Shown here piece after piece: positions 12,364 through 57,374 of a stretch of DNA of 64,000 nucleotides; position 1 is the stretch's first letter, and each line of letters begins with the position of its first letter. The position numbers and the translations under genes are program-made. The notes below the pieces were generated by a model. That model was given only the letters and a program-made list of their open reading frames with translations. It did no database searches and had not been told where the DNA came from. The DNA is from an uncultured virus (IMG/VR IMGVR_UViG_3300002349_000003) (lineage: Duplodnaviria; Heunggongvirae; Uroviricota; Caudoviricetes), in the IMG/VR virus record IMGVR_UViG_3300002349_000003. One strand, given 5' to 3'.

Positions 12364-12627
12364 TACTACGATGATTGCTGCCATTATTATCTTTACAATT
12401 ATCATTATGGAATTTTACGATGACAACTTCCGTTGAGATTTACCCATATTGGGCTCGATATATAGCAAAGGATGCTGATGGACAATGGAACTGTTTTGAA
12501 TATTCACCAACATATGATGGTATAAAATGGACTTCGCCATATAAGACAAAACGGATGAAAATTAAGAATGTTAACACCGTGGACCCGGAAAAATCTTATA
12601 CGGTTCTACCTCAACGAGGAAGATGAT

Positions 12628-13032
12628 ATGAGTTTAGCGTTTTCAGATGACTATGACAGAGGAGCAAGAATGACTCAATTTGAATATGATCAGAAATATG
12701 TTTCAAAATTAAATGATGTAAAAGCATCGCAAACAGCTACTACTGGTGGAAGAAAATTTGATGGTGGTAAACCAGAGTTTGGTCTTATTCCACCATTAGC
12801 ACTTACTGAAACTGCCAGAGTAATGACTTATGGTGCTCATAAATATGAACCTGATAACTGGATTCATGTACCAGATGCTAAACGCAGATATTTTAATGCT
12901 GCTCAAAGACACCAATGGGAATATCGTGAAGGTGAGGAATTAGATTCCGAATCTCAACTTCATCATATTGCTCATGCTATCTGCAATTTAATGTTCCTTT
13001 ATGAACATGTAGTAAAATATTCAAAGGAATAA
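12628..13032 (+). CDS. dATP/dGTP diphosphohydrolase-like domain protein (DUF5664-like)
   Basis: GRKFDGGKP, VMTYGAHKY..DNW, DSESQLHHIAHAICNLMFL. Confidence 0.8.
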   Translation: MSLAFSDDYDRGARMTQFEYDQKYVSKLNDVKASQTATTGGRKFDGGKPEFGLIPPLALTETARVMTYGAHKYEPDNWIHVPDAKRRYFNAAQRHQWEYREGEELDSESQLHHIAHAICNLMFLYEHVVKYSKE

Positions 13033-17308: not shown

Positions 17309-18295
17309 ATGATGATTAACGAATTTTATACAAATGCAATCCAATATGGTAATAAAATACTTGTCAGATCTATTAGAGATGGATTGCCACAAAAGCAGAA
17401 AATCGATTTTTACCCTACCTTATATACCACATCAGGAAAATCTTCAGAATCTTCTTCATTCAAGTCTTTACATGGAGTAGAATTATACGAAATAAAACCG
17501 GGTACCATAAATGATTGCAAAGATTTCATAAAAACTTACGAAAATGCGATGCCTGTGTATGGACAAACAAACTATGCATATCAATATATTGAAGAAAATT
17601 ACAAAACCGATATAAAGTTTGATTCTGACTTATTAAAAATCATTGCTATCGATATAGAAACTGCAAATGAAGAATCTGGTTTTCCTCATCCAAAATACGC
17701 TAATGAAGAAATTCTACTAATTACTGTCAGAGATCTTAAAACTAAATCTACAAAAATATTTGGATCTAGACCTTATGAAGGAAAACATAAAGCAGATTTT
17801 GTCCTTTGTAAAGACGAAAATCAATTACTTCAGCAATTTGTGACTCATTGGCAACAAAGAATCCCTGACATTATTACGGGTTGGAATATTGACAACTTTG
17901 ATATTCCGTACATTATTAATAGACTACTAAGAACTATAGGAGAAGATTATGTTAAAAAACTTTCTCCATGGAATATAGTCAATGAACGTTCTAAAAAGGT
18001 TAATAACGTAGAACAACAGACTTATGAAATACTCGGTGTGTCATCTTTAGACTATATTGAACTCTATAAGAAATATTCTAAAAAAAACCAGGAGTCATAC
18101 AGACTAGACCATATAGCATTTGTAGAACTTGGTGAAAGAAAACTGGATCATAGCCAATGGAATACTTTCAAGGAATTTTACTCTGGTGAATATGACACTC
18201 ATAAAATTAGGCCAGAGTATGAAAATTCGGATACAAAGTCTTATAGAAGAACACAGATAAAATTAGAGTTAATTAGACGCGGACTAACAGTTTAA
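17309..18295 (+). CDS. gp43: Family B DNA polymerase, N-terminal fragment (N domain, ExoI, ExoII)
   Basis: [24 protein letters not shown]; ends before ExoIII. Confidence 0.92.
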
Positions 18296-19133
18296 ATTGT
18301 TTACAGTTTGTGCCATGCCATCTATTATAATTAAGAGGATCAAAACTGCAGTTGCAATATTCACAAAGTATTGATTCTTTCTTTTTCATAGGTGGCAATT
18401 CTATTTCAGATTTGAATACATTTAAAGAACTGTCAAATATTGTCCAAGTTTTAGAAACTAGTCTTGTATTTCCTAGTGTTAAATTATATATTTTCTGTGG
18501 GCTTATTTTTGTTAATTGATGAAATTCTGATATAGTCATATCAAATACATCTTTAGTTATTACATTTTTAAATTTGAAAATGTCTTTTTTAAACCAAGGT
18601 TTACTTTGCTTTGCAATTTTACCAAAATTAATATTTTTACATTCAATAGAACATAATTTCTGGCTAATATTATGTGTAATTATTTCTTTATTACATACGG
18701 AACAATTTATAGTGATATACTTTCTGTTCGATAGCGCTTTCAATGATCTATTCTGTTTAATTATTTCTTTAGTACACGATCTAGAACAACAATTACTGCA
18801 TCCGCTAAATTCTTTATAACAATATTTGCAAATTTTCATTGGCTTAAGTTTTTTAACTCCAGTATTTCCATCTCCGCCATCAGTCTTATTTAGGAGTATA
18901 CCTGTCCCAATGTCTTTTCGCCCATGCCATCTTATCATTCTTCTTTCTATTGCTAATGCTCCAACTTCAGATAAATTCGTTTCTAGGAATATTATCTTTG
19001 TTCTATCCTTTGGCACAGATATTCCTTTATGAATATCATAGGCTCTAGTATTCTTACCTTTTCCAATGTAATATGGTGTTCCGTCTGACTTTCTAATATA
19101 TGCATACACGTAATATATAAGATCGCTGGTCAT
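18273..19133 (-). mobile_element. Free-standing GIY-YIG-like homing endonuclease inserted antisense within gene 43
   Basis: YVYAY...[17 protein letters not shown], several CxxC motifs, C-terminal RWHGTNCK. Confidence 0.85.
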
Positions 19134-19290: not shown

Positions 19291-20970
19291 ATGTTTAGTG
19301 ATATATCAGATAAAGATTTATTAGATGAATATTATAAATTAGATAAAGAAATAAAGCAAGAATCATGGACTACATATACTGATTACAATTATCATGACGT
19401 ATTGCTTATTGATAAATTGGATGAGCAATTAAAGTTTATCGAGTTACAACTCACAATGGCATATACTGCCAAGATTAATTATCAAGAAGCATTTAGTCCG
19501 GTTAGACTATGGGACTCTACAATCTATCACTATCTTATTAATAAGAACATTATTATTCCTAACATGGACAGAAATGTTAAAGGAGAATTAATGGGTGCCT
19601 ATGTAAAGACTCCTATTACTGGCATTCATAAATGGATCGCGTCATTCGATTTGGCATCATTATATCCTCATCTAATAATGCAATACAATATCAGCCCAGA
19701 AACATTAACAACTACGAAATTGTCATTCACTATTGATAATTTATTAGACAAAATTGAACTTCCAAAAGTTGATTATGCAATTACTGCTAATGGTTGGTGC
19801 TATTCTAAAGATAAGCGCGGATTCCTACCAGAGTTGATGGACACTATGTATGCAAATCGTTCTATGCATAAGAAACAAATGTTAAAGCATGAACAGCAAT
19901 ACGAGAGTGATAAGAACAATAAGGAACTATCAAAAGAAATTTCAAGACTTAATAACTTGCAACTAGCTCTAAAGGAAACACTAAACAGTGCATACGGAGC
20001 TATTGGAATGCCATACTTCCGATATTATGATTTGAGAATGGCAGAATCCATAACATCATCTGGACAGTTCTCGATAAAATGGATAGCAAACAGAATTAAC
20101 AAATATTTGAATTCAGCTTTGAAAACAAATAACACCGATTATATTATTGCTTCGGATACCGATTCTGTGTACGTGTCATTGGAAACTTTGGTCGAAACGA
20201 CTCAAGGTGAAAAATCGACAGAAGATAAAATCAAATTCATGGATTCATTCTGCGGCAAAGTCTTAACTCCGTTAATAGAAAAATCATATATCGAGTTAGC
20301 AGAGTACATGAATGCCTATGAACAAAAGATGCAAATGAAACGAGAAGTACTTGCTGATAAAGGTTTGTGGACGGCTAAGAAAAGATATGCATTAAGAGTT
20401 CATAACTCTGAAGGTGTTCAGTATGATAAACCAAAAATGAAAATTATGGGCATTGAGATTGTAAAGTCATCGACTCCAACTGCCATAAGAGAAAAATTGA
20501 AGTCAACTATTGATATTATTTTTAATGACACTAATTTGGACCTCATAAGATTCATTGAAGACACTAGACAGGAATTTAAAACATTAGCAGTAGAAGATAT
20601 TGCTATTCCAAGTACAGTTAATGGAATGATAAAATTTTCTAATGACAAAACTATTTATTCTAAAGGCTGTCCGATTTATGTCAGAGGAGGTTTATTATAC
20701 AATAAAGTTGTTAAAGATATGAAACTTGATCAGAAGTATCCTTTAATAGGCGCAGGAGACAAATTAAAATATGTTTATTTGAAACTCCCAAATACTATTA
20801 AAGAAGATGTTATTGGATTCCCTACTGAATTACCAATGGAATTCGGATTACATAAGTATATTGACTACAACACTCAGTTTGAAAAAGTGTTCTTGAATCC
20901 ATTAGAAAAGATTGTCGATGCTATTGGTTGGAATTTAAAAGAGCAATCGACTTTAGATGCATTCTTCTAA
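19291..20970 (+). CDS. gp43: Family B DNA polymerase, C-terminal fragment (ExoIII, palm, fingers, thumb, clamp-binding tail)
   Basis: YNYHD, SFDLASLYP, K...NSAYG, SDTDS, KKRY, TLDAFF; own GTTTAC-N18-TATTAT promoter and GGAG SD. Confidence 0.95.
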   Translation: MFSDISDKDLLDEYYKLDKEIKQESWTTYTDYNYHDVLLIDKLDEQLKFIELQLTMAYTAKINYQEAFSPVRLWDSTIYHYLINKNIIIPNMDRNVKGELMGAYVKTPITGIHKWIASFDLASLYPHLIMQYNISPETLTTTKLSFTIDNLLDKIELPKVDYAITANGWCYSKDKRGFLPELMDTMYANRSMHKKQMLKHEQQYESDKNNKELSKEISRLNNLQLALKETLNSAYGAIGMPYFRYYDLRMAESITSSGQFSIKWIANRINKYLNSALKTNNTDYIIASDTDSVYVSLETLVETTQGEKSTEDKIKFMDSFCGKVLTPLIEKSYIELAEYMNAYEQKMQMKREVLADKGLWTAKKRYALRVHNSEGVQYDKPKMKIMGIEIVKSSTPTAIREKLKSTIDIIFNDTNLDLIRFIEDTRQEFKTLAVEDIAIPSTVNGMIKFSNDKTIYSKGCPIYVRGGLLYNKVVKDMKLDQKYPLIGAGDKLKYVYLKLPNTIKEDVIGFPTELPMEFGLHKYIDYNTQFEKVFLNPLEKIVDAIGWNLKEQSTLDAFF

Positions 20971-21030: not shown

Positions 21031-21894
21031 ATGTCAGAATTATTAGCAAAAATTAAAAAGACTTGTACCATTAAAGATTCTTCTGTATTGAGTGCATCAA
21101 AATATTTTAATAAAAAGGATATGATTCAAACTCAGATTCCTGCATTAAATGTTGCATTATCTGGAGAATTGGATGGAGGTTTTGTTCCTGGTCTGACATT
21201 ATGGTGTGGTCCAAGTAAACATTTCAAATCGATGTTTTCATTAATCATGGCTAAAGCTTACATGGACAAATATCCTGAAGCAATTATGATTTTTTATGAT
21301 TGCGAATTTGGAACTCCAACTGCGTATTTTAGTTCTCTTAATATTGATACAAATAGAATTCTTCATGTTCCTGTAATGAATATGGAAGAATTCAAATTTG
21401 ATGTCATTAAACAATTAGAAGGACTTGATAGAGGAGATAGGGTAATTTTTATCATTGACTCTCTAGGTAATATGTCTTCCAAAAAAGAAATGGAAGATGC
21501 TATTGATGGAAAATCAGTACAAGATATGTCTAGAGCTAAACAAATGAAATCAATTTTTAGAATGATTACGCCATATCTTAATAGATTAGACATTCCAATG
21601 GTAGCAGTTAACCACATCTATATGTGTGGAACAGAAGAAATGGAAGTTATTTCGGATAATGGTGCAATTAGTCTAAAAAATATCACGCCGGGAATGTTAG
21701 TGGAAACTACCAATGGACTTCAACCCGTCACTAATGTATTTAAGTATGAGGACGCGTATGTGTCTGATATTGAAATGGAAGACGGCACAATACTATCATT
21801 TACACAAGGACATAGATTCATGGTAAATGGAGAATGGGTCTTTGTAGAGGATCTTCAAGAAGGAATGGAACTTGATATAAAACCCATCTCGTAA
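21031..21894 (+). CDS. uvsX: UvsX recombinase N-extein fused to split N-intein
   Basis: GPSKHFKS, FYDCEFG, IDSLGN, VNHIYM then C-initiated Hint domain (T.GHRF) from 21625. Confidence 0.93.
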   Translation: MSELLAKIKKTCTIKDSSVLSASKYFNKKDMIQTQIPALNVALSGELDGGFVPGLTLWCGPSKHFKSMFSLIMAKAYMDKYPEAIMIFYDCEFGTPTAYFSSLNIDTNRILHVPVMNMEEFKFDVIKQLEGLDRGDRVIFIIDSLGNMSSKKEMEDAIDGKSVQDMSRAKQMKSIFRMITPYLNRLDIPMVAVNHIYMCGTEEMEVISDNGAISLKNITPGMLVETTNGLQPVTNVFKYEDAYVSDIEMEDGTILSFTQGHRFMVNGEWVFVEDLQEGMELDIKPIS

Positions 21895-21935
21895 TTGCAA
21901 TAAATAATTCATATATACATTTTAAAGGGTTTTAT

Positions 21936-22736
21936 ATGAATTATTTGAAACATTACGAATTATTAATTACTAGAGCAAAATCTAGAAGTAAAATTTTAGA
22001 GTATATTGAGAAACATCATATAGTTCCAAAGTGTTTAGGTGGAAATAATGATATTGACAATATTGCTGAACTAACACCAGAGGAACATTATTTTGCCCAT
22101 CAACTACTAGCAAAAATATATCCAGATAATTGCGGGTTAATTAGTGCATGTAAATTGATGGGAGGAAGTATTTCGGGAAAAAGAAGTAATAATAAAATCT
22201 ATGGGTGGATAAGAAGAAAATCTAATATATTGATGGGACAGTCAATTAGGAAACTTCATATTGATAAAAGAGATATGAAGTCTATATCATTAGGATTTGA
22301 AAATTATATTGATATGTCTAAGTCTATATGGGATTTATTCATAACCCATAAATTACATTATACTTCTATAGAAGAAAAATTTGGGGTTAGTCGGCATTTT
22401 ATAAAAAGATCTTTAGAAGTATATGCTAAAGATAATGACTTATTAGATGAGTTAGCTCAAGGTTATTATGATCTTAAGTCAAGCAGTCAAAAACTAGGCA
22501 GATCTAAATTTACTGAAGATCAAGAAAGCAATAGAATAACAGCATTAAAAAATATTGACTATGCCGCTAGATCATTAAAAACCGGTTCTAGAAAAGGATC
22601 ATTAAATCCAACATTTGGTAAAACTTGGTCTCATATTAAAATGATGTGCCCATATTGTAATAAAGAAGTCGGCGGAAAGCGTTGGCATTTTGATAACTGC
22701 AGGAGTAAAAATGAAAATCAAATCAATAAAATTTAA
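21936..22736 (+). mobile_element. Free-standing HNH homing endonuclease between the intein halves
   Basis: EKHHIVPKCLGGNN..N...LTPEEHYFAH; C-terminal CPYC...RWHFDNC; late-type AATAAATA upstream. Confidence 0.9.
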
Positions 22737-33031: not shown

Positions 33032-34138
33032 ATGAAATTAGCAGTATTGAAATTAGGCGCAAGAATTGTTTTTGGCCAAAAGGTTGGATCAAGCGGAGGA
33101 TCAGGTGAAGCTGCTTCTTTAATAGAAATGATGGTTGAAGGTGGATGTGAAGTTGACTGTTATACTAAGGTATTGTCTTCAGATCAACAAAACAGATCAG
33201 TCAACGTGCTTAATATTGAAGACCATTATGAGAATATTACCAGTAATGTATACGATGCATTAGTAGTCATTAATGGCGCTGTTAATTTCTTTGGTGGCCA
33301 AGAAGACAGACCACAGATTCTTAATTATAAAGCAATAAACAACTTTAATGGAAAAATCATTTACTTGTACTGTGACCCGAATTTATCTCTAAAACAAATT
33401 TGGCCTTCTATTGAGAAGAAACCCTGGGCTTCAAATTGGAATAAGGAAGATATTAATATTACAAAGCCTATTAATGTGATTTCGCAATCATACAATTTAG
33501 AAAAAAATAAAGCACTATTTGAGAAAAATGGATATCCTGTAGAATCTATTGTGCAATATGATTTCCAAAAATTCCCAATGATGAAACCAAGAGAAACTTC
33601 TATTCTAGGAAAGACTGTTGATTTGTCTTATGGAGGAACCTTTAGATCTGGTAGAAGAGAAAAGAAATTAATAGAATTCTATTTTGGACTCCCAGAAGAT
33701 ATTTCGGTAGAAGTATTCGGTAAAATTAAAATTACGGACTTTAATGAGAAAAAAGTAACCGGATTACGTCCGCCAAAGTTTCTTCCTCCAGTCGATTATA
33801 ATAATATGATTCAGAAAATGTCTTCTTCTAAAACCCATATTGCTATTGGTGATAATCAATACCCAGATTTTGAAATGATCTCTCAAAGAGTATATGAATC
33901 TATTATGGCGGGAACTTTATTATTCATTGATAATGAATTTGATAAGAATAAAAGAATTTTTGGAAACAATACTGAACTTTCCAATTTGCTATATATCAAT
34001 GACAGAAATCAATTTGCAGATAGATTAAAATCATTGTCAGATTCTGATTACGAATCACTAATAGAACTTCAACATTCATGTGTAGATTTTAATAAATCAG
34101 AATATTGTTTAAACTTTGTAAAACTTTTGGAGGTATAA
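33032..34138 (+). CDS. bgt: DNA beta-glucosyltransferase homolog (GT-B)
   Basis: NFFGG, QIWP.IEKKPW, YGGTFRSGRREKK, IGD..Y, RVYE, IDNEFD match T4 BGT motifs as recalled. Confidence 0.88.
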   Translation: MKLAVLKLGARIVFGQKVGSSGGSGEAASLIEMMVEGGCEVDCYTKVLSSDQQNRSVNVLNIEDHYENITSNVYDALVVINGAVNFFGGQEDRPQILNYKAINNFNGKIIYLYCDPNLSLKQIWPSIEKKPWASNWNKEDINITKPINVISQSYNLEKNKALFEKNGYPVESIVQYDFQKFPMMKPRETSILGKTVDLSYGGTFRSGRREKKLIEFYFGLPEDISVEVFGKIKITDFNEKKVTGLRPPKFLPPVDYNNMIQKMSSSKTHIAIGDNQYPDFEMISQRVYESIMAGTLLFIDNEFDKNKRIFGNNTELSNLLYINDRNQFADRLKSLSDSDYESLIELQHSCVDFNKSEYCLNFVKLLEV

Positions 34139-34139
34139 T

Positions 34140-34952
34140 ATGGAACAAGAAAAAGACGTATTTGATGACAGTTCAGCAGTATTTTTTAAAAATGGATTCC
34201 TTGGTAAAATAAAATTTTCCAGTGCATGGCATATTGCATTCATTAGCAGATATACTTCAACATGCACAGAAATTACCAAAATCAAAAGAAAAAATACTGA
34301 AGATTATGTTACTATATTAGATGTTGGGTGTGGTAATAAAACATTCTATCAATTTTGGTCTAAAAGTTTTGAAAGTTTATTGCGTCCCAGAGTGGATTAC
34401 TTGGGTTTAGAATATGAACAATCTGTTGTAGATGAAGCAAATTCACCAACTGGAAGAGAATCTGTCAACAAATACAAAGTCATTCACTGTGATCTAAATA
34501 CTACTTCATTTCATGACATTAAGCATCACGACAAATATGACGTAATTCTGTTGCAGGAAATTCTAGAACATATTCCAAAAGAAACTGCATTGAAACTTAT
34601 AAAAGAAGCATCTGAATTGGTATCAGATAGAGGATTTATTGTCATATCATCTCCTAATCCAAAAAAGGACGAAGGTCAAGAATTTGTATGGCCAGAGAAT
34701 CACATTCAAGAGTTTACTTTGGACGAAATGCATGATATGATAACCACTAATGGATTAAGTATCAGAAGAGTCAATGGGTGGTTAGGTAAAGCCAGATATT
34801 TTAAAAAGCATTTGAGTTCTAACAATATGGCTCTATATAACCAATTAAAAGGGATTTCGCAAGGATTCGCGGCAAGTACGATAGCATTTCTAAATCCAAA
34901 GATTGCAGAATGTTATATTTTTATTGCAGAAAAAAATAAGGGTATATTATGA
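34140..34952 (+). CDS. Class I SAM-dependent methyltransferase
   Basis: ILDVGCG, YDVILLQEILEHI, ISSPN, HIQEFT. Confidence 0.9.
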   Translation: MEQEKDVFDDSSAVFFKNGFLGKIKFSSAWHIAFISRYTSTCTEITKIKRKNTEDYVTILDVGCGNKTFYQFWSKSFESLLRPRVDYLGLEYEQSVVDEANSPTGRESVNKYKVIHCDLNTTSFHDIKHHDKYDVILLQEILEHIPKETALKLIKEASELVSDRGFIVISSPNPKKDEGQEFVWPENHIQEFTLDEMHDMITTNGLSIRRVNGWLGKARYFKKHLSSNNMALYNQLKGISQGFAASTIAFLNPKIAECYIFIAEKNKGIL

Positions 34953-36661
34953 AAATCGTAATATTTTCAGGTGGCACTGGTTCAGTTCAATTACAGAAAG
35001 GTCTATATGAAACATTTGGTAAAGATGTATTAGACTATACGGTCATTACAAACTTAGCGGATAACGGTCTTTCTACTGGAGAATGCAGAAAAGTTATGGA
35101 TGGAAAAATTATGGGTCCGTCCGATTTAAGAAAGAATCAAATGCTAAGAGCAAAACTGGAAAATAGTATATCAGAAAAATTGTATGAATTCCTAAATGAC
35201 AGAATAACTATTTCTGCCGATGAAGTTCAATCGGTGCTTTTAGACAGAATCCATAAACTAGACATTGATATGTTTTATAGAGGTGTATTAGCTTCTGGAG
35301 TGAATCAATTCTTTGATAGCCAGTTATCATCACAGATAGATTATATTGACTTTTCAATTTCTAATATCATTTATTCTGGAATAGCAAAGAAACATAACTA
35401 TTCATTGGATTCTGCAGGAAAAGTATTTGAAGGAATATTAGACATTCCAGAGAATAGTGTAATTTCTAATACTGATTCTCCGATGTATCTTATGGCTAAA
35501 ACCCAATCTGGTTATATTATACATGACGAAGCTGATATAGTATCATGGAATAATCCTGATGATAAAATCGTAGATTGTTTCTTTGTTGATAACCATAATA
35601 AGCCAGTAATTCCAGAATTATCAGAACTTTCGAAATCTGTAATATTATCAGCAGACATTATAATTTTTTCATCCGGGACTCAATGGTCATCTCTTATTCC
35701 GACATATAAATCCATAGGATTCTCTGAAACTATATCAGAATCGAAAGCAAAGAAATATTTAATTCTTAATGCTAGTCAAGATGCTGATATGAAAGGTGTA
35801 TCTGGTGACGAATTGATTAATATTCTTATGGGTTATTTACCAAAAGATACTACTATCATTTCTGCTTTAGACGGTGACCCTTTATTAATTCCTGATTCGT
35901 ATCAAAAAATCTCAGCTTTCTTACTTAATCAGGGTAAACACGACGGGAAGGCATTGGTAAAAACTATTTTTGACCACTATTATAATTACCCAAAGATTAG
36001 TGACCAATACGTTTTCGATTATGATGATACTATTGTTGCTAGAGGCTCGCAGCACTCTAAAGTATCTAAATCCAATGTCAAAAGAGTTCAAGAACTTTAT
36101 AATAAGACTAATAATGTTTGGATATCTACTGGAAATACTATCAATGCTTTGCATGGAAATTTTTCTAATATTAAAGCATTAGCAGATGGTGGTGTTAATC
36201 TATACAAATTTAATAAAGAAGGAATTCCGCAATTCGAAAAATGCCTAGATAATGATTTACTTTTCTCTAAAAATGATATAGAATATATTACGGCAGATAT
36301 TGTAGACTGTGGAATTGATATTACTAAAATCCAAATACGTGGAAAGGTAATGATTTCTATCAAACCAATATCTCCTGAATACAGACATAGCATTAAATTA
36401 TTATTAGAATCTAAACTAAGCAAATACGATCTATTAATTAGAATGTCTGGAAGAACAACGATTGACATTACAAAACCAAACTTGGATAAAATTTTAGCAA
36501 CAGAAACTCTATTCGTTAATGATTTTACTTATATTGGTGATGAAGGTGAATCTGGCAATGACCACCAAATATCACAATGTGGACATTGCAATTTTATACC
36601 AGTTAAAGATGTCAAAGATACTAACATGTACTTAGCAATTCTATTGGGAAAAGATGATTAA
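34949..36661 (+). CDS. YvcK/CofD-family domain fused to a HAD-IIB phosphatase/phosphomutase
   Basis: N-term FSGGTGS, DNGLSTG, GPSDLRKN, GTQWSSLIP; C-term FDYDDT, STGN, GRTTIDI, YIGDE...GND. Confidence 0.82.
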   Translation: MKIVIFSGGTGSVQLQKGLYETFGKDVLDYTVITNLADNGLSTGECRKVMDGKIMGPSDLRKNQMLRAKLENSISEKLYEFLNDRITISADEVQSVLLDRIHKLDIDMFYRGVLASGVNQFFDSQLSSQIDYIDFSISNIIYSGIAKKHNYSLDSAGKVFEGILDIPENSVISNTDSPMYLMAKTQSGYIIHDEADIVSWNNPDDKIVDCFFVDNHNKPVIPELSELSKSVILSADIIIFSSGTQWSSLIPTYKSIGFSETISESKAKKYLILNASQDADMKGVSGDELINILMGYLPKDTTIISALDGDPLLIPDSYQKISAFLLNQGKHDGKALVKTIFDHYYNYPKISDQYVFDYDDTIVARGSQHSKVSKSNVKRVQELYNKTNNVWISTGNTINALHGNFSNIKALADGGVNLYKFNKEGIPQFEKCLDNDLLFSKNDIEYITADIVDCGIDITKIQIRGKVMISIKPISPEYRHSIKLLLESKLSKYDLLIRMSGRTTIDITKPNLDKILATETLFVNDFTYIGDEGESGNDHQISQCGHCNFIPVKDVKDTNMYLAILLGKDD

Positions 36662-37406
36662 TTTAATTATTATAGCTGCTGGAAACGGCAAAAGAATGGG
36701 AAACATTAATGTTCCAAAAGTATTATATCCAGTAAATGGAGTTCCTAATTTAAAAAGAATTATTACTAATGCTATAGAGTCCGAAGTATTTGACTCTATA
36801 GATTTAGTAATTAAAGATTCTGCAGTAAAAAGTTTTAAAGAATTTTTGGATAATAGTGAATTTGATATTAAAATAAATCTAATTCCTATAAATTCGGGAC
36901 TAGGAGATGGACATGCAATTCTTTCCATGTATAAGAATGCTCATCAATATAACAATTCTATATTGGTATGGGGCGATGTTTATATTGATAGTCCAATGAT
37001 ATTCAAAGAATTGAAAGATGTTGGAAGTTCTACTGGTAATAACTTTTCAAGCGCAGTAATTCCGGTATGTACTGAAAAGAATCCTTACGTTACTATATTG
37101 ACTGATTCTAATATGAACGCATTATCAGCAGACTTCTCTAAACTTGGAGAAACTCATTTGGAAGGATTCCACGATCAGTCTATATTCTATATCAATAACG
37201 ATGTAATATATGATAGTCTTCAAAAAATGCATGAAGTGTTATGGAAAAATGGACAATACATTACTCAATCAAAAGAATTAAATTTCTTACATATTCTTCA
37301 TTATTTAAGAAATATTAATTACCCAGCAAATTGTTATATTACTGAGTACCCAACAAAGTCGTTTAATAGTATTGAAGAATTGACAAAATTGGAAAATTCA
37401 TTATGA
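36654..37406 (+). CDS. Sugar-phosphate nucleotidyltransferase (NTP_transferase/GlmU-N-like)
   Basis: IIAAGNGKRM...PK.L, GLGDGHAI, WGD, FNS.EEL. Confidence 0.85.
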   Translation: MINLIIIAAGNGKRMGNINVPKVLYPVNGVPNLKRIITNAIESEVFDSIDLVIKDSAVKSFKEFLDNSEFDIKINLIPINSGLGDGHAILSMYKNAHQYNNSILVWGDVYIDSPMIFKELKDVGSSTGNNFSSAVIPVCTEKNPYVTILTDSNMNALSADFSKLGETHLEGFHDQSIFYINNDVIYDSLQKMHEVLWKNGQYITQSKELNFLHILHYLRNINYPANCYITEYPTKSFNSIEELTKLENSL

Positions 37407-40950: not shown

Positions 40951-41096
40951 CAAAACAAATGTTTGACTGTGACTCATGCGAGACACAAGGGATTATAACA
41001 ATCCGAACAGATGGTGTTGAGAAAAATGATATTATCTATTGCCCAATCTGTGCAAGTCCAATCTTTAGAGATGAAGACGACACGGATGACGAATGA
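40947..41096 (+). CDS. Small zinc-ribbon protein (not in ORF track)
   Basis: MTKQMFDCDSC...YCPIC...acidic tail; ATGA overlaps at both ends. Confidence 0.7.
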   Translation: MTKQMFDCDSCETQGIITIRTDGVEKNDIIYCPICASPIFRDEDDTDDE

Positions 41097-41533
41097 GTTG
41101 GACTCATAACGGAAAATTAGTAACCGAATTGCCAGAGTGCGAAGGCTTTGTCTACTTGATATCTAACAAGATTGATGGTAGACAGTATATCGGCAAGAAA
41201 TTAGCAAAGTTTTCCAAAACGTCTATTAAGACTGTAGTACTGAAATCTGGTGAAAAGAAAAAGAAACGAGTAAAGACAAAGGTTGAATCTGACTGGATGA
41301 AATACTGGTCATCATCAATTGAATTGCAACACGATGTTAAGACATTAGGTGAAGAAAATTTTACTCGTGAGATTATTCATTTCTGCCAAACCAAGGGTGA
41401 ATGTTCGTACCTTGAAATGAAAGAACAGATCATAAACGAAGTACTAATACAACCAGACAAATGGTACAATGCCTTTGTTGGTGGTAAGATTCATCGTAAT
41501 CATGTAAAAAATTTATTTAAAGAGGTAAAGTAA
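41093..41533 (+). CDS. GIY-YIG family nuclease
   Basis: GFVYLI.N..DGRQYIGKK, ESDW..YWSS. Confidence 0.8.
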   Translation: MSWTHNGKLVTELPECEGFVYLISNKIDGRQYIGKKLAKFSKTSIKTVVLKSGEKKKKRVKTKVESDWMKYWSSSIELQHDVKTLGEENFTREIIHFCQTKGECSYLEMKEQIINEVLIQPDKWYNAFVGGKIHRNHVKNLFKEVK

Positions 41534-50397: not shown

Positions 50398-50448
50398 TGT
50401 TTACAAATGTGGCATTTTGAATTATAATTAATTTTTTTGGAGTTTAAT

Positions 50449-50853
50449 ATGAGTACAAATTTTGTAAAAGATATTTCTGACATGCACACCAAGTTTGGTG
50501 TTAACACTACAGTTAATAAGTTTGATAAAGAAAGATTAACAGCATTTCTGGATTTTAGAATTGGGTGTTTGCAGGAAGAATTAGATGAACTTAAACATGC
50601 TGAAAATGCTGATGATGCGGTAGATGCCTTAATAGATCTAATAGTATTCGCAGTAGGTACCTTAGATGTGTACCAGGTTGACTCTGTTAAAGCCTGGCAA
50701 AGAGTGTATGATGCTAATATTGTTAAAGAAGTAGGAATTAAGGAAGGTAGACCCAATCCTTTTGGATTACCCGATCTAATTAAACCAGAAGGTTGGGTTG
50801 CTCCATCACATGTAGATAATGTTGGTTTATTAGATATAGTGTTTGCGGATTGA
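50449..50853 (+). CDS. MazG-like nucleotide pyrophosphohydrolase (candidate dCTPase)
   Basis: EELDEL, DALIDL..F..G, V.DAN..K, DLIKPEGW. Confidence 0.8.
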   Translation: MSTNFVKDISDMHTKFGVNTTVNKFDKERLTAFLDFRIGCLQEELDELKHAENADDAVDALIDLIVFAVGTLDVYQVDSVKAWQRVYDANIVKEVGIKEGRPNPFGLPDLIKPEGWVAPSHVDNVGLLDIVFAD

Positions 50854-50854
50854 T

Positions 50855-51835
50855 ATGTATTCTCTGACGGCCTTTGCATCGATATACGACAACAAAACTC
50901 ACCGTCAAGTAAGCCATAACACCTGGGAGTCGTTTGAGAAAATGCTATATGGCATGTCAAAACTTCCAGGTTATAAACTTAAAAAGGGAGAATTCAGAGC
51001 GCCTAAAGGTGTTAAGGCTTCTCCCTTAATCACACCAGCTTCTTATAGAGAAGGAACAACCCGTTCTAATGATGCTGTTGTAGAATGGTCTGGTTGGGCT
51101 GCACTTGATATTGATAACCATGTCTTTAAAGGAAACCTTAAAGAAGAGTTAAGTGAGAAATATGGAAAGACCTATTTTGTATGCTATTCTACATCAGGGT
51201 CAACGGTAGAACATCCTAAATTTAGACTAGTATTTCCATTAACTGGTTCTGTGAAAAAGGAAAAGATAAAACATTTTTGGTTTGCCTTGAATAGAGAGTT
51301 TGACGATCTTGGTGATGGTCAAACAAAGGATCTTTCCAGAATGTATTACGTGCCTGCGATTTATCCTAATGCTTATAATTTTATCTTTACTAATATTGGT
51401 GAGATTATAGACCCTGATAGATTAATGTTCAATCATCAGTATGAGCAACCGCGAGGACCTCTAAGTATATTAGAACAGATGCCGTCAGATATTCAAAAAA
51501 TGATACTAGCTCAAAGAGCAGATATGCTTGAGGAAATCTCGCATAAGAATTATTCGTGGTCTTCTTATGAGGATTGTCCGTTCGTAAACAAAAAAATGAT
51601 TCATGAGTATAGTTCTATAGCACATACCGATGGTTCTGGAAGATATGCGATGATGTATAAAATCATGACAAGTATTGCGTGTAATGCTATAAGAAGAAAG
51701 TATCCATTGAATGCTGTACAATTGGAAGAATTAATCCGTCAATTGGACAGAAACACTTCTAACTGTTATTCTAAGCGTCCTCTTCATACCGAGTCATCTA
51801 GAGCAATAGAATATGCTTATAGGAATATTAACTAA
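50855..51835 (+). CDS. AEP-superfamily primase-like protein
   Basis: WAALDID, YSTSGST...PKFRLVFPL, DLSRMYYVP; helical C-terminal domain. Confidence 0.75.
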   Translation: MYSLTAFASIYDNKTHRQVSHNTWESFEKMLYGMSKLPGYKLKKGEFRAPKGVKASPLITPASYREGTTRSNDAVVEWSGWAALDIDNHVFKGNLKEELSEKYGKTYFVCYSTSGSTVEHPKFRLVFPLTGSVKKEKIKHFWFALNREFDDLGDGQTKDLSRMYYVPAIYPNAYNFIFTNIGEIIDPDRLMFNHQYEQPRGPLSILEQMPSDIQKMILAQRADMLEEISHKNYSWSSYEDCPFVNKKMIHEYSSIAHTDGSGRYAMMYKIMTSIACNAIRRKYPLNAVQLEELIRQLDRNTSNCYSKRPLHTESSRAIEYAYRNIN

Positions 51836-51884
51836 TGTGTACAAATATAGAAATTAAGTTATAATATTAATTTATGAGAATTAT

Positions 51885-52427
51885 ATGATTAGAAAAATAG
51901 CATTAATGCTAAAAGATGCTGGAACAGTTGAGATTGACAAAGATACTATTCATAATGATGTACATTTAATGGCTTCTAGTATTTTTGAAAAACCTTTCAT
52001 GAGAAAGGAAAGATCATTTGAACAAGTGTATGAACACTGCGCGTATACTGCTATCGAGTATGCTCTTGCTAATGTTATTGACGGACAACGCAATCCTTTA
52101 AAATTCGATAAGACTAATCCTGAGTCTTACAAATATGATGTTATTAAGGACGATTTGAAATTTGAAGTAAAGAAACATGCTTTTAACAATTCCTATTTTA
52201 CATATCAAAAGTCTAATATTAATACATTTCTTAAGCACTGTCAAACATTAGACTATTTGGTAACTGCTACAATGGCAACTAATGTTGATTCTTACTTAAT
52301 AGATTTTTACATGATTATTAATGCAAAGAAATTCTCAGATAATTTCAAGCAATCAAAATTTAATGAAGGATGGTATTATGACCATCGATTCAATAATGAC
52401 AATATTATTATTAAAACCCTGGAGTGA
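51885..52427 (+). CDS. denB: Endonuclease IV-like (dC-specific) PD-(D/E)xK nuclease
   Basis: E.C....E, NP.SY.YDV, FEVK.H and S.FN.GWY align with T4 DenB as recalled. Confidence 0.65.
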   Translation: MIRKIALMLKDAGTVEIDKDTIHNDVHLMASSIFEKPFMRKERSFEQVYEHCAYTAIEYALANVIDGQRNPLKFDKTNPESYKYDVIKDDLKFEVKKHAFNNSYFTYQKSNINTFLKHCQTLDYLVTATMATNVDSYLIDFYMIINAKKFSDNFKQSKFNEGWYYDHRFNNDNIIIKTLE

Positions 52428-52837
52428 ATATGACTGAAGCAAAACGTAAATCTGTTGAAGTATTAGAAGAAGCAATTGCTCTTCAAATTAAGAAAGGTAA
52501 TGATTACCAGAATTCTGCATCAAGAGTAAGACAGGCAGATTACTATCCTCACGGAATCAATAGTATTTTAGATACTATTAATGCTAAAGTCTTACGAATG
52601 TTTTCTGTTATTGAAACAATGGAAGCGGGTGGATCTGTCAATTTTGAATCAATCGAGGATTCTGCTATCGATGGAATCAATTACTTATCATTCTTAGTTT
52701 CATACATGAGAGGTGAAATCGATGGTCAACAACCTGATAGAGATATTTTCAATAAGACGGGTCAACAAAATCGTGCCTTAATTCCTACTAAATTCAGAAC
52801 ACAAACTGGCGGCAATATTATTGGAGTAAACAAATAA
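52424..52837 (+). CDS. Nucleotide-modification-associated helical protein (DUF1599-like)
   Basis: Q.KKGNDY, K.LR, ES.EDS..D.INY; adjacent to dCMP hydroxymethylase. Confidence 0.65.
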   Translation: MNMTEAKRKSVEVLEEAIALQIKKGNDYQNSASRVRQADYYPHGINSILDTINAKVLRMFSVIETMEAGGSVNFESIEDSAIDGINYLSFLVSYMRGEIDGQQPDRDIFNKTGQQNRALIPTKFRTQTGGNIIGVNK

Positions 52838-53505
52838 TGGAACAATACTCTGTAAAAGATATTAGAAATGAATTTAAGTCACTATTGGAAAATGACGAAT
52901 TTGTAATAGACAAGACCGGTTGCAAAATGGTTGAAATTGCCGGAACATCATTTATTGCTAGTGAACCTACTATCTTTGGAACTCTTAATGAAGACTATGC
53001 TAAAAGAGAAATAGAATGGTACAAATCCATGTCTCTTAACGTTAATGACATTCCAGGTGAAACTCCAGCAGTGTGGAAACAGGTTGCTGATGCAAATGGA
53101 ATGATCAATTCTAATTATGGTTGGTGTGTTTATTCAAGAGAAAACCATTATCAATTCCAGAACGTACTTCAAGAATTAGTAAGAAATAGATTCTCTAGAA
53201 GAGCAATAATGATTTATACCCGGCCTTCTATTTGGGCCGAATTTGAAACCGTGGGAATGTCTGATTTTATTTGCACCAATACAGTTCAATATCTTATTAG
53301 AAATAATAAACTTCACGCATTTGTACAAATGCGGTCAAATGATGCAATTTTTGGATATAAAAATGACTTATATTGGCAACAGCACGTCCATACTGAATTG
53401 CATGAATGTCTTAATGAGAGTGGAGTACAATGCGAAATCGGTGATATTATCTGGAATGCAACATCGCTTCATGTTTATGAAAAACATTTCCATTTGATAA
53501 AATAA
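52837..53505 (+). CDS. gp42: dCMP hydroxymethylase (thymidylate synthase fold)
   Basis: INSNYGW, SRRA, DFICT, MRSNDAIFGYKND (Asp specificity residue), SLHVYE. Confidence 0.9.
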   Translation: MEQYSVKDIRNEFKSLLENDEFVIDKTGCKMVEIAGTSFIASEPTIFGTLNEDYAKREIEWYKSMSLNVNDIPGETPAVWKQVADANGMINSNYGWCVYSRENHYQFQNVLQELVRNRFSRRAIMIYTRPSIWAEFETVGMSDFICTNTVQYLIRNNKLHAFVQMRSNDAIFGYKNDLYWQQHVHTELHECLNESGVQCEIGDIIWNATSLHVYEKHFHLIK

Positions 53506-53589
53506 TAGTATACTTTTATAATTAGTATGATATAATAGCTTCAGGTTACTAATAATGGTAATCATAAATTAACACAGGAATTTTATATT

Positions 53590-53856
53590 ATGAGCAGCAA
53601 TCCAAGATCTTCTAAAAATTATGTTACCACTGTCAAAATGACCAACCCAGTTGACCGAGTATTTGTTGAACAGTTACGCCAATATATTAATGAAACAAAC
53701 CATCTTCGTAAAGTCAAACAAAGAGTAGTTCTTCGTGGTAGACTAGGCCATGATAATCCCGCGGCTCCTTACTATTATAACCAACCAACATGGTTCTATA
53801 ACGTTAAAATTCAGCACTCTGAAAGATCTGATGTGTATATTTACGAACGAAGATAA
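53590..53856 (+). CDS. Hypothetical protein
   Basis: Early promoter and SD; RVVLRGRLG..NP, DVYIYER. Confidence 0.6.
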   Translation: MSSNPRSSKNYVTTVKMTNPVDRVFVEQLRQYINETNHLRKVKQRVVLRGRLGHDNPAAPYYYNQPTWFYNVKIQHSERSDVYIYERR

Positions 53857-54302
53857 TGATGGAAAACAAATGGAATAATAGATTCATGGACATGGCGAAA
53901 GCTGTGTCCTTATGGTCCAAAGACCCCAGTACTAAAGTCGGTGCGGTTGCAGTAGGAAGCAAAAAACAAATCTTAGCTACTGGGTTCAATGGTTTTCCAA
54001 GAGGAATATCTGATACTATTGAGAGATTAGAAAATCGTGAAATTAAGTATGACTATATTGTACATGCTGAAAAGAATCTAATCTATAATGCTTCATATAC
54101 AGGAACATCATTAGATGGAGCAGCAATATATGTGTATGGACTTCCAGTATGTCTTGAATGCGCCAAGGGAATTATTCAAGTTGGAATTAGTGAGATTTAC
54201 GTAAGTAAAGAATGTCTAATGTCTAAACCAAATTGGTATGACTCTTGGCTTAAATCAAAAGCTATGTTTGAAGAAGTTGGGTTATTCGTAGATTTAGTTT
54301 GA
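53856..54302 (+). CDS. cd: dCMP deaminase
   Basis: SKDPSTKVGA, GFNGFPRG, HAE.N, P.C..C. Confidence 0.93.
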   Translation: MMENKWNNRFMDMAKAVSLWSKDPSTKVGAVAVGSKKQILATGFNGFPRGISDTIERLENREIKYDYIVHAEKNLIYNASYTGTSLDGAAIYVYGLPVCLECAKGIIQVGISEIYVSKECLMSKPNWYDSWLKSKAMFEEVGLFVDLV

Positions 54303-55914: not shown

Positions 55915-56904
55915 ATGAAACAATATTACGATCTTCTTCAGAAAATCATGGAAACTGGTAATCCAACTAATGATAGGACAGGAGTTGGCACTCTTTCACT
56001 TTTCGGCGAGCAACTTAAATTCAATCTTCAATCTGGATTTCCTTTACTTACTGGCAAGTTTACTTCATTCAAGACAATCTCAAACGAACTGTTGTGGTTC
56101 CTGAATGGGTATACAAACAATGAAGATTTAAGAAAATTGAATGGTAATGATAAACCAACCATTTGGGAAGAATGGTCAACGCCTTCGGGTGACTTAGGTC
56201 CAATCTACGGTAAACAGTGGCGTAACTGGGGTGCCGTTCCTATTCCAAATATGCCAACAGAATCTATGGATGGTATTGACCAAATTGAAAATCTTATCCG
56301 TGGTCTTAAAGAAAGACCATTCAGTCGTCGTCATATTATATCAGCATGGAATGTTGCTGATTTGCCAAGCGAAGAATTAACGCCTCAAGAAAATGTAGAA
56401 TCAGGTAAGATGGCTTTGGCGCCTTGTCATGCATTTGTTCAGTTTGGTGTTAGAGAATTATCCTTCAGTGAACGCGCTGTTCTGTATGTCCAGAAATATT
56501 TTGGTACTCATTTTGGACTTGGATATGATAGGGACTATGAGAATCTTATGAATAATGTTGGTGTTCCTAAATATGGATTATCTTGTCATTTATACCAAAG
56601 AAGTGCTGATATCTTTTTAGGAGTTCCCTATAACATTGCTAGTTATGCGTTGTTCACTGAAATACTCGGCAATTTGACAAATATGTTACCAGAGAATTTG
56701 ATTATCTCATTTGGCGATGTTCATCTATATAAGAATCATATCAACCAAACAAAAGAACTACTATCGCGGAATCTTGCAGAATATGCATTACCTACGTTGG
56801 TATTCAATGACCATTATAATTCTATTGATGAGATTAATGAATATAGTTATACCATTAAAGATTACCGGTCACTTGGATCTATTAAAGCAGAGGTTGCGGT
56901 GTGA
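55915..56904 (+). CDS. td: Thymidylate synthase
   Basis: DRTGVGT, ELLWFL, GPIYGKQWR, MALAPCH, YQRSAD.FLGVPYNIASY; no intron. Confidence 0.96.
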   Translation: MKQYYDLLQKIMETGNPTNDRTGVGTLSLFGEQLKFNLQSGFPLLTGKFTSFKTISNELLWFLNGYTNNEDLRKLNGNDKPTIWEEWSTPSGDLGPIYGKQWRNWGAVPIPNMPTESMDGIDQIENLIRGLKERPFSRRHIISAWNVADLPSEELTPQENVESGKMALAPCHAFVQFGVRELSFSERAVLYVQKYFGTHFGLGYDRDYENLMNNVGVPKYGLSCHLYQRSADIFLGVPYNIASYALFTEILGNLTNMLPENLIISFGDVHLYKNHINQTKELLSRNLAEYALPTLVFNDHYNSIDEINEYSYTIKDYRSLGSIKAEVAV

Positions 56905-57374
56905 AGCCATTTGATAATTTATATTTAATTGCCGCAGTAGCAAAATTCGGTGTTATTGGAGACTCATACACTCCTGGCATGCTTTGGCATTGCCGAGAAG
57001 AACTTAAACACTTCAAAAATACGACAATGGGTTCTACTATAGTTATGGGTAGGATTACTGCTGAAACCACTGGCAAATTACCTGGGCGTGACTGTATTGT
57101 ATTAAGTAGAGATCCTAATTATAAATTAGAAGGATTTACTACAATGACAATTGATAATTTCTTGACTTATGCTCAATGTAATCCAACAGTAAGTTTTATG
57201 ATATGTGGTGGAGGTGAAATATATCTTTCTCTTATAGCTTATTGTAGGATTGCTATTGTATCAAGAATGAAGTTAGAAGTCAAAGGTGATATTACTTTTT
57301 ATGTTCCGTCAGAATTTGAAAAGTACAATGTAAGAGAATTTTCTGACTTTACTGTAAACTACTATTCACGCTGA
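56901..57374 (+). CDS. frd: Dihydrofolate reductase
   Basis: GVIG, HFK.TT, VMGR.T, LPGR..IVLSR, ICGGGEIY. Confidence 0.92.
   Translation: MKPFDNLYLIAAVAKFGVIGDSYTPGMLWHCREELKHFKNTTMGSTIVMGRITAETTGKLPGRDCIVLSRDPNYKLEGFTTMTIDNFLTYAQCNPTVSFMICGGGEIYLSLIAYCRIAIVSRMKLEVKGDITFYVPSEFEKYNVREFSDFTVNYYSR

Follow-up and report, generated by a model that had tools for sequence, protein, structure and literature searches.

A T4-type dCMP hydroxymethylase gene and its neighbours point to a probable 5-hydroxymethylcytosine pathway in an uncultured aquatic T4-like phage

Protection of DNA by 5-hydroxymethylcytosine (hmC) is a textbook trait of the T-even coliphages. The logic of the T4 system is to make 5-hydroxymethyl-dCMP (hm-dCMP), to exclude dC and to glycosylate the DNA after replication, and the same logic can be read from the genes of the DNA described here, a 64,000-nucleotide stretch (IMG/VR record IMGVR_UViG_3300002349_000003; 'the window' refers to this whole stretch) from an uncultured, low-GC, aquatic T4-like phage. 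Positions 50449-53505 of the window are filled by five co-oriented open reading frames (ORFs), which an initial annotation labelled, in order, as a MazG-like pyrophosphatase, an AEP-like primase, a DenB-like nuclease, a DUF1599-like protein and an enzyme of the thymidylate synthase (TS) fold. All five genes are present as labelled, the labels being of unequal strength (Table 1). The window resembles T4 in carrying an orthologous gp42 with an identical active-site signature, a DenB family nuclease, a homologue of the T4 beta-glucosyltransferase (beta-gt; BGT) and the genes cd, td and frd. It differs in that homologues of gp56 and gp1 went undetected in the window, the pyrophosphatase role apparently falling to the MazG-like and DUF1599-like genes; its beta-gt lies 13 kb from gene 42, in an operon with genes for a methyltransferase, a CofD/HAD protein and a nucleoside triphosphate (NTP)-transferase; its DenB is very divergent; and its backbone is that of another T4-like clade, with an AEP primase.

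Elements of the locus recur in other phages. In Serratia phage PS2 (Muldoonvirus) a DUF1599-like gene, 60% identical to that of the window, is likewise directly upstream of gp42 and is followed by glucosyltransferases; PS2 differs in having gp56 and a gp61 match (the latter through two stop codons), with no MazG-like or AEP gene there. Pseudomonas phage PaMx74, a siphovirus unrelated to T4, encodes a 245-aa protein (gp53) that fuses MazG-like and DUF1599-like halves, 39% and 36% identical, respectively, to the window proteins; the next gene downstream specifies a TS homologue in which the ThyA N177 position is Asp, and cd and frd follow. The PaMx74 arrangement differs from that of the window in the fusion of the two domains and in its TS homologue, which belongs to another subfamily (Asn at the L143 position). 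Because it combines Asp at N177 with Asn at L143, the PaMx74 'thyA' (L100:3584-5675) may act on dCMP and not on dUMP. A limited literature search found no published description of a gp42/MazG/DUF1599 module.

The TS-fold ORF matched T4 dCMP hydroxymethylase (PDB 1b49) at E 1.1e-78 (phmmer), ThyA chains reaching only 1e-5 to 6e-8, and T4 gp42 aligned with it at 54% identity (tblastn, E 1.6e-80). The Asp of its GYKND motif, which had been held to specify dCMP, corresponds to T4 Asp179, the residue of dCMP specificity that replaces ThyA Asn177; the D179N mutant chain 6l18 aligns in the same column. The catalytic residues Cys148 and Glu60 are kept in the alignment, the ThyA L143 position holds Asp (T4 D145 column), and the ThyA D169 position is Asp171 (RSND), as it is in T4, PS2 and 43 relatives. 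Indeed, when the window ORF was aligned with T4 gp42, PS2 gp42 and 43 homologues from related loci, the signature E60, D145, C148, R168-S169-N170-D171, D179 was T4-identical in 46/46 gp42-type rows. It is beyond doubt, as judged by sequence, that this ORF is the orthologue of T4 gp42, a predicted dCMP hydroxymethylase of the T4 type. The canonical td that the initial annotation placed separately from it, at 55915, was also confirmed (55915-56904).

We consider it probable that the genes described here serve a T4-style pre-replicative pathway in which dC is replaced with 5-hydroxymethyl-dC, the gp42 cassette and the BGT operon forming a two-locus trait. In this pathway the MazG-like enzyme, a proposed dCTP and dUTP pyrophosphatase, would withdraw dCTP from the pool, and the DUF1599-like protein may join it as a two-part all-alpha pyrophosphatase in place of T4 gp56. 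The dCMP released would be split between gp42, which would yield hm-dCMP, and the deaminase Cd, which would yield dUMP and then dTMP. Phosphorylation of hm-dCMP would fall to some other enzyme, there being no gp1-type candidate in the window; the hmC-DNA would then be decorated by the BGT operon, and the DenB-like nuclease would attack dC-containing (host or unmodified) single-stranded DNA. The predicted function is thus that of the T4 hmC system, with gp42 and DenB inside the T4 families, while the pyrophosphatase genes are analogues of the T4 gp56 dCTPase/dUTPase by context and lie outside the gp56 family. A wider proposal is advanced more tentatively, and we think it possible rather than probable: that a two-part all-alpha pyrophosphatase, made of a MazG-like subunit and of a DUF1599-like (or MazZ-like) one encoded immediately before gp42, has taken over from gp56 throughout a large clade of uncultured aquatic T4-like phages, that there is no gp1-type kinase, that the cassette and the decoration operon are gained and lost together, and that gp42 is a common platform for lineage-specific decorations.

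The MazG-like ORF clears the Pfam PRA-PH cut-off of 21.3 bits (PF01503; 23.2 bits, E 9.4e-5) and matches phrog_671 'nucleotide pyrophosphohydrolase' at 4e-18. Its residues E43/E44/E47 and D59/D63 are invariant in 14 homologues and fit EExxE plus DxxxD, which we take to be the metal-binding motifs of MazG and other all-alpha NTP pyrophosphohydrolases. The DUF1599-like label is the weakest of the five. This ORF matches phrog_1485 (3e-15) and phrog_18404 (1.6e-11); its PS2 homologue gives PF07659 at 0.0054 (17.5 bits, below the 25-bit cut-off), the same domain is precomputed on 1/120 of the homologues listed, and 23/30 of its feature neighbours in the ESM Atlas fall in clusters in which 17-48% of members carry PF07659. 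A protein 99% identical to this ORF is encoded on a 143-kb contig. Homology with gp56 was not found for these genes (BLASTP E 6.6 and 0.17; hhalign probability 2.6%; PHROG families other than phrog_173), and T4 gp56 had no tblastn match in the window. Elsewhere in the window, at 12568-13032 (+), a 154-aa ORF matches PF18909 'dATP/dGTP diphosphohydrolase, N-terminal' (7.6e-32) and phrog_801, and belongs to the MazZ-like family that replaces DUF1599 upstream of gp42 in eight related loci; the window thus has three MazG-type or helical pyrophosphatase-like genes.

The context of these genes was followed in 80 IMG/VR loci anchored on the AEP-like protein, 34 of which were informative, with 1.5 kb or more of sequence before AEP and 5 kb or more after it. 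The common order in the 80 loci is gp43, (uvsX, gp41), MazG, AEP, a variable slot, DUF1599, gp42 and cd. Among the informative loci MazG and gp42 were both present in 28 and both missing in 5, with MazG only in 1 and gp42 only in 0; cd and gp42 were both present in 27 and both missing in 5, with one exception each way. In two loci (L080 and L082) the MazG gene lies with gp42, apart from AEP. In 47 loci gp42 lies downstream of AEP; its immediate upstream neighbour there was DUF1599-like in 31, MazZ-like in 8 (104-113 aa; phrog_801 at 1e-33 to 1e-38), an inserted-cassette ORF between DUF1599 and gp42 in 6 and unknown in 2. The gp56 profile phrog_173 matched 0/5 long records of the AEP clade, four of which carry gp42; a separate search with the same profile was positive in T4 and PS2. 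There is good contextual support for the pyrophosphatase step being supplied by the MazG-like protein, which is a credible non-orthologous stand-in for gp56, as had been suggested, and the DUF1599-like protein probably joins it in that step. The idea of a two-part enzyme comes solely from the PaMx74 fusion and the gene linkage.

The second locus of the proposed trait is the operon that begins with the BGT homologue (33032-34138; 29% identity to T4 beta-gt). It continues with genes for an S-adenosylmethionine (SAM) methyltransferase, a 570-aa CofD-like (2-phospho-L-lactate transferase family) plus HAD-like protein and a MobA/IspD-like nucleotidyltransferase, a content suggesting a more elaborate decoration than glucose alone. 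In the AEP tree the window and its closest relative (L019-21 / G007) cluster with support 100/100; the two are 77-78% identical in AEP and 82-88% in nrd/td/frd/rnl. In this relative cd follows AEP within about 10 bases, the equivalent of ~51836-53855 (DenB-like, DUF1599-like, gp42 and an 88-aa ORF) being missing. The flanks of the BGT operon are also adjacent there, in the order 145-aa coiled-coil ORF (96% identical), zinc-domain ORF (64%), nrdB and nrdA; none of the BGT, methyltransferase, CofD/HAD and NTP-transferase genes lies between those flanks. A search for PF09198 gave matches in 0/6 other records (G002-G007) and was positive in T4 and in G001, the record nearest to the window (a 34-kb fragment). 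Compared with this nearest relative, the window has two insertions, the cassette and the BGT operon, which thus behave as one two-locus trait; their joint presence in the window and joint absence in the relative support the earlier suggestion that the BGT operon acts on an acceptor provided by the cluster. No convincing flanking repeats were found around the cassette. Other relatives with gp42 (L070:11718-13249, L080:10581-19380 and equivalents) have different small cassettes next to it, with genes for a cupin ('cysteine dioxygenase' PHROG), a heptose-1-phosphate adenylyltransferase-like protein (nucleotidyltransferase), a UDP-glucose dehydrogenase, a QueD-like enzyme and a phrog_85 'thymidylate synthase' match. 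These gene contents hint at lineage-specific decorations of hmC among the relatives that carry gp42.

The initial annotation made the DenB-like nuclease part of the modification system; its family membership was borne out, but not its standing as a fixed component. Pairwise BLAST of the ORF against T4 DenB and gp56 was negative, tblastn against cultured phages gave no matches, and a search for related loci returned only near-identical copies. The ORF matches phrog_1360 at 1.3e-10, and a 5-sequence profile matched T4 DenB weakly (hhalign 67%, E 5e-5). An exhaustive profile search seeded with the ORF gave 196 representatives at E<=0.001. A profile of 142 of these, through which the homology to DenB was found, aligned with T4 DenB over 120 columns (hhalign 98.5%, E 3.5e-15; hmmsearch 7.7e-22), and T4 DenB was matched by BLASTP (E<=0.01) from 31/150 of the representatives listed. 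The conserved E...D...ExK core of the ORF (E58, D85, E94-x-K96) aligns with T4 AEF / WDV / VEVK. The top PDB matches of its AlphaFold2 model (pLDDT 87) are all PD-(D/E)xK restriction enzymes (E 3e-3 and weaker, probability up to 0.99), and 'DNA endonuclease IV' stands at rank 5 in BFVD (E 8.7e-6). A PF26887 label is precomputed on its homologues. The ORF is a distant but real homologue of DenB/EndoIV and a predicted PD-(D/E)xK nuclease, and a nuclease of this family is translationally coupled upstream of gp42. The DenB-like gene is an occasional accessory of gp42 loci and no fixed part of them, being present in 5/28 informative loci with gp42. In relatives, the slot between AEP and DUF1599 holds two recurrent ORF families (15 and 11 members) with no PHROG match, which align weakly with the DenB-like family (hhalign 54% and 89% over 48-68 columns). 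A GIY-YIG ORF (41093-41533), considered as a DenA analogue, was dropped because such ORFs are common in cyanophages, which are not known to make hmC.

Several observations weigh against the proposed pathway. The locus counts include the same phages sampled repeatedly and are counts of loci, not of independent events. The DUF1599-like ORF has no Pfam match of its own even at E<=10, and profile comparisons of MazG with DUF1599, of MazG with gp56 and of DUF1599 with MazZ-like proteins gave nothing significant; these comparisons were shallow (Neff <2), and their outcome does not exclude a shared fold. To the patchy occurrence of the DenB-like gene and the middling fold matches of the AEP-like protein (see below) is added the finding that other relatives with gp42 have no BGT homologue, so that BGT is no general partner of gp42 in the clade. 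A homologue of the T4 gp1 kinase was found neither in the window nor in the 5 long relatives (where the gp1 protein search had no positive control), the thymidylate-kinase family had no match in either, and the window has no Walker-A ORFs besides gp46, gp44 and gp41. Completeness of these relatives is 53-86%, and the window itself covers only part of a genome; the missing gp1 is thus a gap and no proof of absence. Finally, L019-21, which have no gp42, keep MazG beside AEP and cd, and MazG as such thus needs no gp42, while PS2 carries gp56 as well as the DUF1599-like gene, which is therefore no simple gp56 replacement and may have a separate function.

It could be argued from these last two cases that the MazG-like and DUF1599-like proteins are pyrophosphatases that shape or clean up the nucleotide pool in a general way, supplying Cd and Td with dCMP and dUMP for a genome rich in AT, and have no specific part in dC exclusion. 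The GC content of the phage, 29-37%, fits this explanation, as does the preference of a cyanophage MazG for dGTP and dCTP in a setting that involves no base modification (PMC6850273). It should be emphasized, however, that the type of MazG follows gp42, and less so the phage backbone: in a quick tree the window MazG groups with gp42-linked MazGs, and the MazG of L019-21 sits on a 4.16-substitution branch outside all 46 others. Moreover, gp42 is never without MazG in the 28 informative loci that carry it, the slot directly upstream of gp42 is occupied by one of two pyrophosphatase-like families in 39/47 loci, both domains are fused beside a TS homologue in PaMx74, and gp56 was not found in the long relatives. 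A pure house-cleaning role is, in our judgement, unlikely, and exclusion of dC by the MazG-like protein, probably joined by the DUF1599-like one, is preferred.

The product of the TS-fold enzyme also has to be considered. A 2026 study (PMC13326640) reports that gp42-like enzymes of RB69 and DLP3 make 5-hydroxy-dCMP, using flavin and O2, and the 5-hydroxycytosine arabinosylation of these phages resembles the system proposed here in combining a TS homologue that acts on dCMP with glycosyltransferases that act on DNA. By analogy, the window enzyme could be a 5-hydroxy-dCMP synthase whose product, as 5-hydroxycytosine, is glycosylated by the BGT-like enzyme via an ether link. The same study reports that TS homologues combining Asp at N177 with an acidic L143 residue can make 5hodCMP, and places synthases of this type among IMG/VR sequences; it also ties the L143 position to the choice between a methyl and a hydroxymethyl product, an acidic residue admitting water to give the latter, and proposes Asn at the ThyA-D169 position as diagnostic of 5-hydroxy-dCMP synthases. 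This diagnostic position is Asp in the window ORF and in all 43 clade homologues, whereas the RB69 gp48 control, a 5-hydroxy-dCMP synthase, has RSQN at the same columns and is only 25% identical to the window ORF, far from the identity shared with T4 gp42. In addition, the partner transferase is a homologue of T4 beta-gt, the acceptor of which is hmC. A 5-hydroxy-dCMP synthase is thus most improbable, and since the position that is Asn in such enzymes is Asp here, hydroxymethylation is favoured over hydroxylation, which largely answers the reservation, voiced in the initial annotation, that the two could not be told apart.

The AEP-like gene had been counted among the modification genes, a view that did not hold. 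The gene belongs to the replication core and keeps its position behind gp43 or gp41 also in loci lacking MazG, DUF1599, gp42 and cd; it stands between the MazG-like gene and the cassette because the module adjoins replication genes. The protein matches phrog_9765 'DNA primase' at 1.5e-62 (N-terminal profile positions 19-270 of 939 only) and phrog_3228 'replicative helicase-primase' at 4e-8, with Pfam BT4734-like_N reaching only 0.11, and has 3105 stand-alone homologues of about 320-330 aa. In 18 homologues neither the DxDxH motif (D85, D87, H89), which would include the DxD of AEP motif I, nor the residues D154, D159 and R162 vary; the usual AEP motif-II His is not invariant. Its model (pLDDT 64) gave only middling matches to RepB' and the S-2L PrimPol AEP domain: the best Foldseek match was RepB' (3h20, E 2.5e-3), and the VIA fold matches were 3h20_A (Z 6.3, rmsd 17.3, 187 aligned) and 6zp9_B (Z 5.7, rmsd 3.8, 116 aligned). 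AEPs were nevertheless the sole recurring theme for residues 71-195.

The gp61 profile phrog_47, which found T4-type primases in PS2, matched 0/4 long clade records, the fifth having only a TOPRIM-like 252-aa ORF, and the complete genome of phage C48C1 gave no match to phrog_47 and none to gp56. According to a survey of dsDNA viruses (PMC4889955), viruses carry an AEP or else a DnaG homologue, apart from one exception. We read the AEP-like protein as the putative replicative primase of the clade, which would have displaced gp61, and not as a modification enzyme. That it might instead act in the modification system, for example as a DNA-acting transferase, is suggested by its location, by a C48C1 homologue (L001:11107-14853) between a DNA methyltransferase and two sugar-nucleotide enzymes (epimerase, UDP-glucose dehydrogenase), and by the variable motif-II His and poor Pfam score, but is very hard to credit given that the same position is kept in loci without modification genes, that its PHROG matches are all to primase or primase-helicase families, that its recurring fold matches are AEPs and that genomes with AEP lack gp61. 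Of gp61 the window retains only the zinc-binding domain, as a 104-aa ORF matching T4 residues 8-102 (E 1.5e-8), and no TOPRIM match turned up in its 64 kb; the zinc-domain protein might serve the AEP primase or the gp41 helicase. The 252-aa ORF of the fifth record (L097; G005:C1:31197-31628, -) is its complement, comprising only the TOPRIM part of the gp61 family (profile positions 179-330). A gp61 gene split by the BGT operon was rejected: in the closest relative the zinc-domain ORF and the 145-aa ORF upstream of it are two distinct genes, with intervening stops.

Table 1. Coordinates of the features discussed, as positions of the 64,000-nucleotide window
Feature	Position	Strand	Remarks
Four-gene operon: BGT homologue, SAM methyltransferase, CofD-like plus HAD protein, NTP-transferase	33032..37406	+	
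Stand-alone gp61-type zinc-binding domain, 104 aa	37403..37717	+	CxxC...CxxC; no TOPRIM domain
Sigma-70-like promoter match, TTTACA-17-TATAAT	50400..50428	+	11/12; just upstream of MazG-like gene; weak
MazG-like all-alpha NTP pyrophosphohydrolase	50449..50853	+	PRA-PH, phrog_671, invariant acidic motifs; gp42 linkage
Stand-alone AEP-type primase (predicted)	50855..51835	+	phrog_9765; neighbour of the modification module, not a member
Promoter-like match, TGTACA-16-TATAAT	51838..51865	+	10/12; 5' edge of inserted cassette; weak
DenB/endonuclease IV family PD-(D/E)xK nuclease (predicted)	51885..52427	+	E58, D85, E94-x-K96
DUF1599-like helical protein	52424..52837	+	Start overlaps DenB-like stop; stop overlaps gp42 start
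dCMP hydroxymethylase (predicted; T4 gp42 orthologue), 222 aa	52837..53505	+	1b49 match, active-site signature
88-aa ORF between gp42 and cd	53590..53856	+	No family match; absent from closest relative
dCMP deaminase (cd)	53856..54302	+	Co-occurs with gp42 in related loci
Canonical thymidylate synthase (td) and dihydrofolate reductase (frd)	55915..57374	+	td: PF00303, 5e-86

The large genes of the window are all on the + strand. PHROG and Pfam scans identified the T4 core genes gp21, gp22, gp23, UvsY, UvsW, gp55, gp47/46, gp45, gp44/62, RegA, a split gp43, UvsX, gp41, RNase H, DNA ligase, NrdAB, Td and Frd, and by single genes the closest cultured relatives are the Kyanoviridae-classified phage C48C1 and Methylophilales phage Melnitz. 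The two parts of the gp43 polymerase (17309-18295 and 19291-20970) are separated by a 286-aa minus-strand ORF (18273-19133; phrog_15526, function unknown). Only the initial ~200 residues of the recombinase profile are matched by the UvsX ORF (287 aa; in 21031-22736, +), which is directly followed by an HNH homing endonuclease (21936-22736), and for these two reasons uvsX may be interrupted. The 88-aa ORF downstream of gp42 was seen only in near-identical copies of the source phage. Promoter-like sites in the region number 32, against 24.4 +/- 4.3 in shuffles, a weak signal.

This study places orthologous gp42 in many uncultured aquatic T4-like phages, where it is accompanied by a different supporting cast. 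If the MazG-like and DUF1599-like pair is a dC-exclusion enzyme, a function would be provided for the PF07659 domain ('nucleotide modification associated domain 1'), the name of which has so far been only a contextual label, and the occurrence of DUF1599 beside TS homologues in unrelated phages would be explained as well. The probable exchange of gp61 for an AEP, with a stand-alone zinc-binding domain retained, bears on how primases are exchanged in T4-type replisomes. Finally, two close relatives, one with both the gp42 cassette and the BGT operon and the other with neither, represent a natural experiment on how a multi-locus base-modification pathway is assembled.

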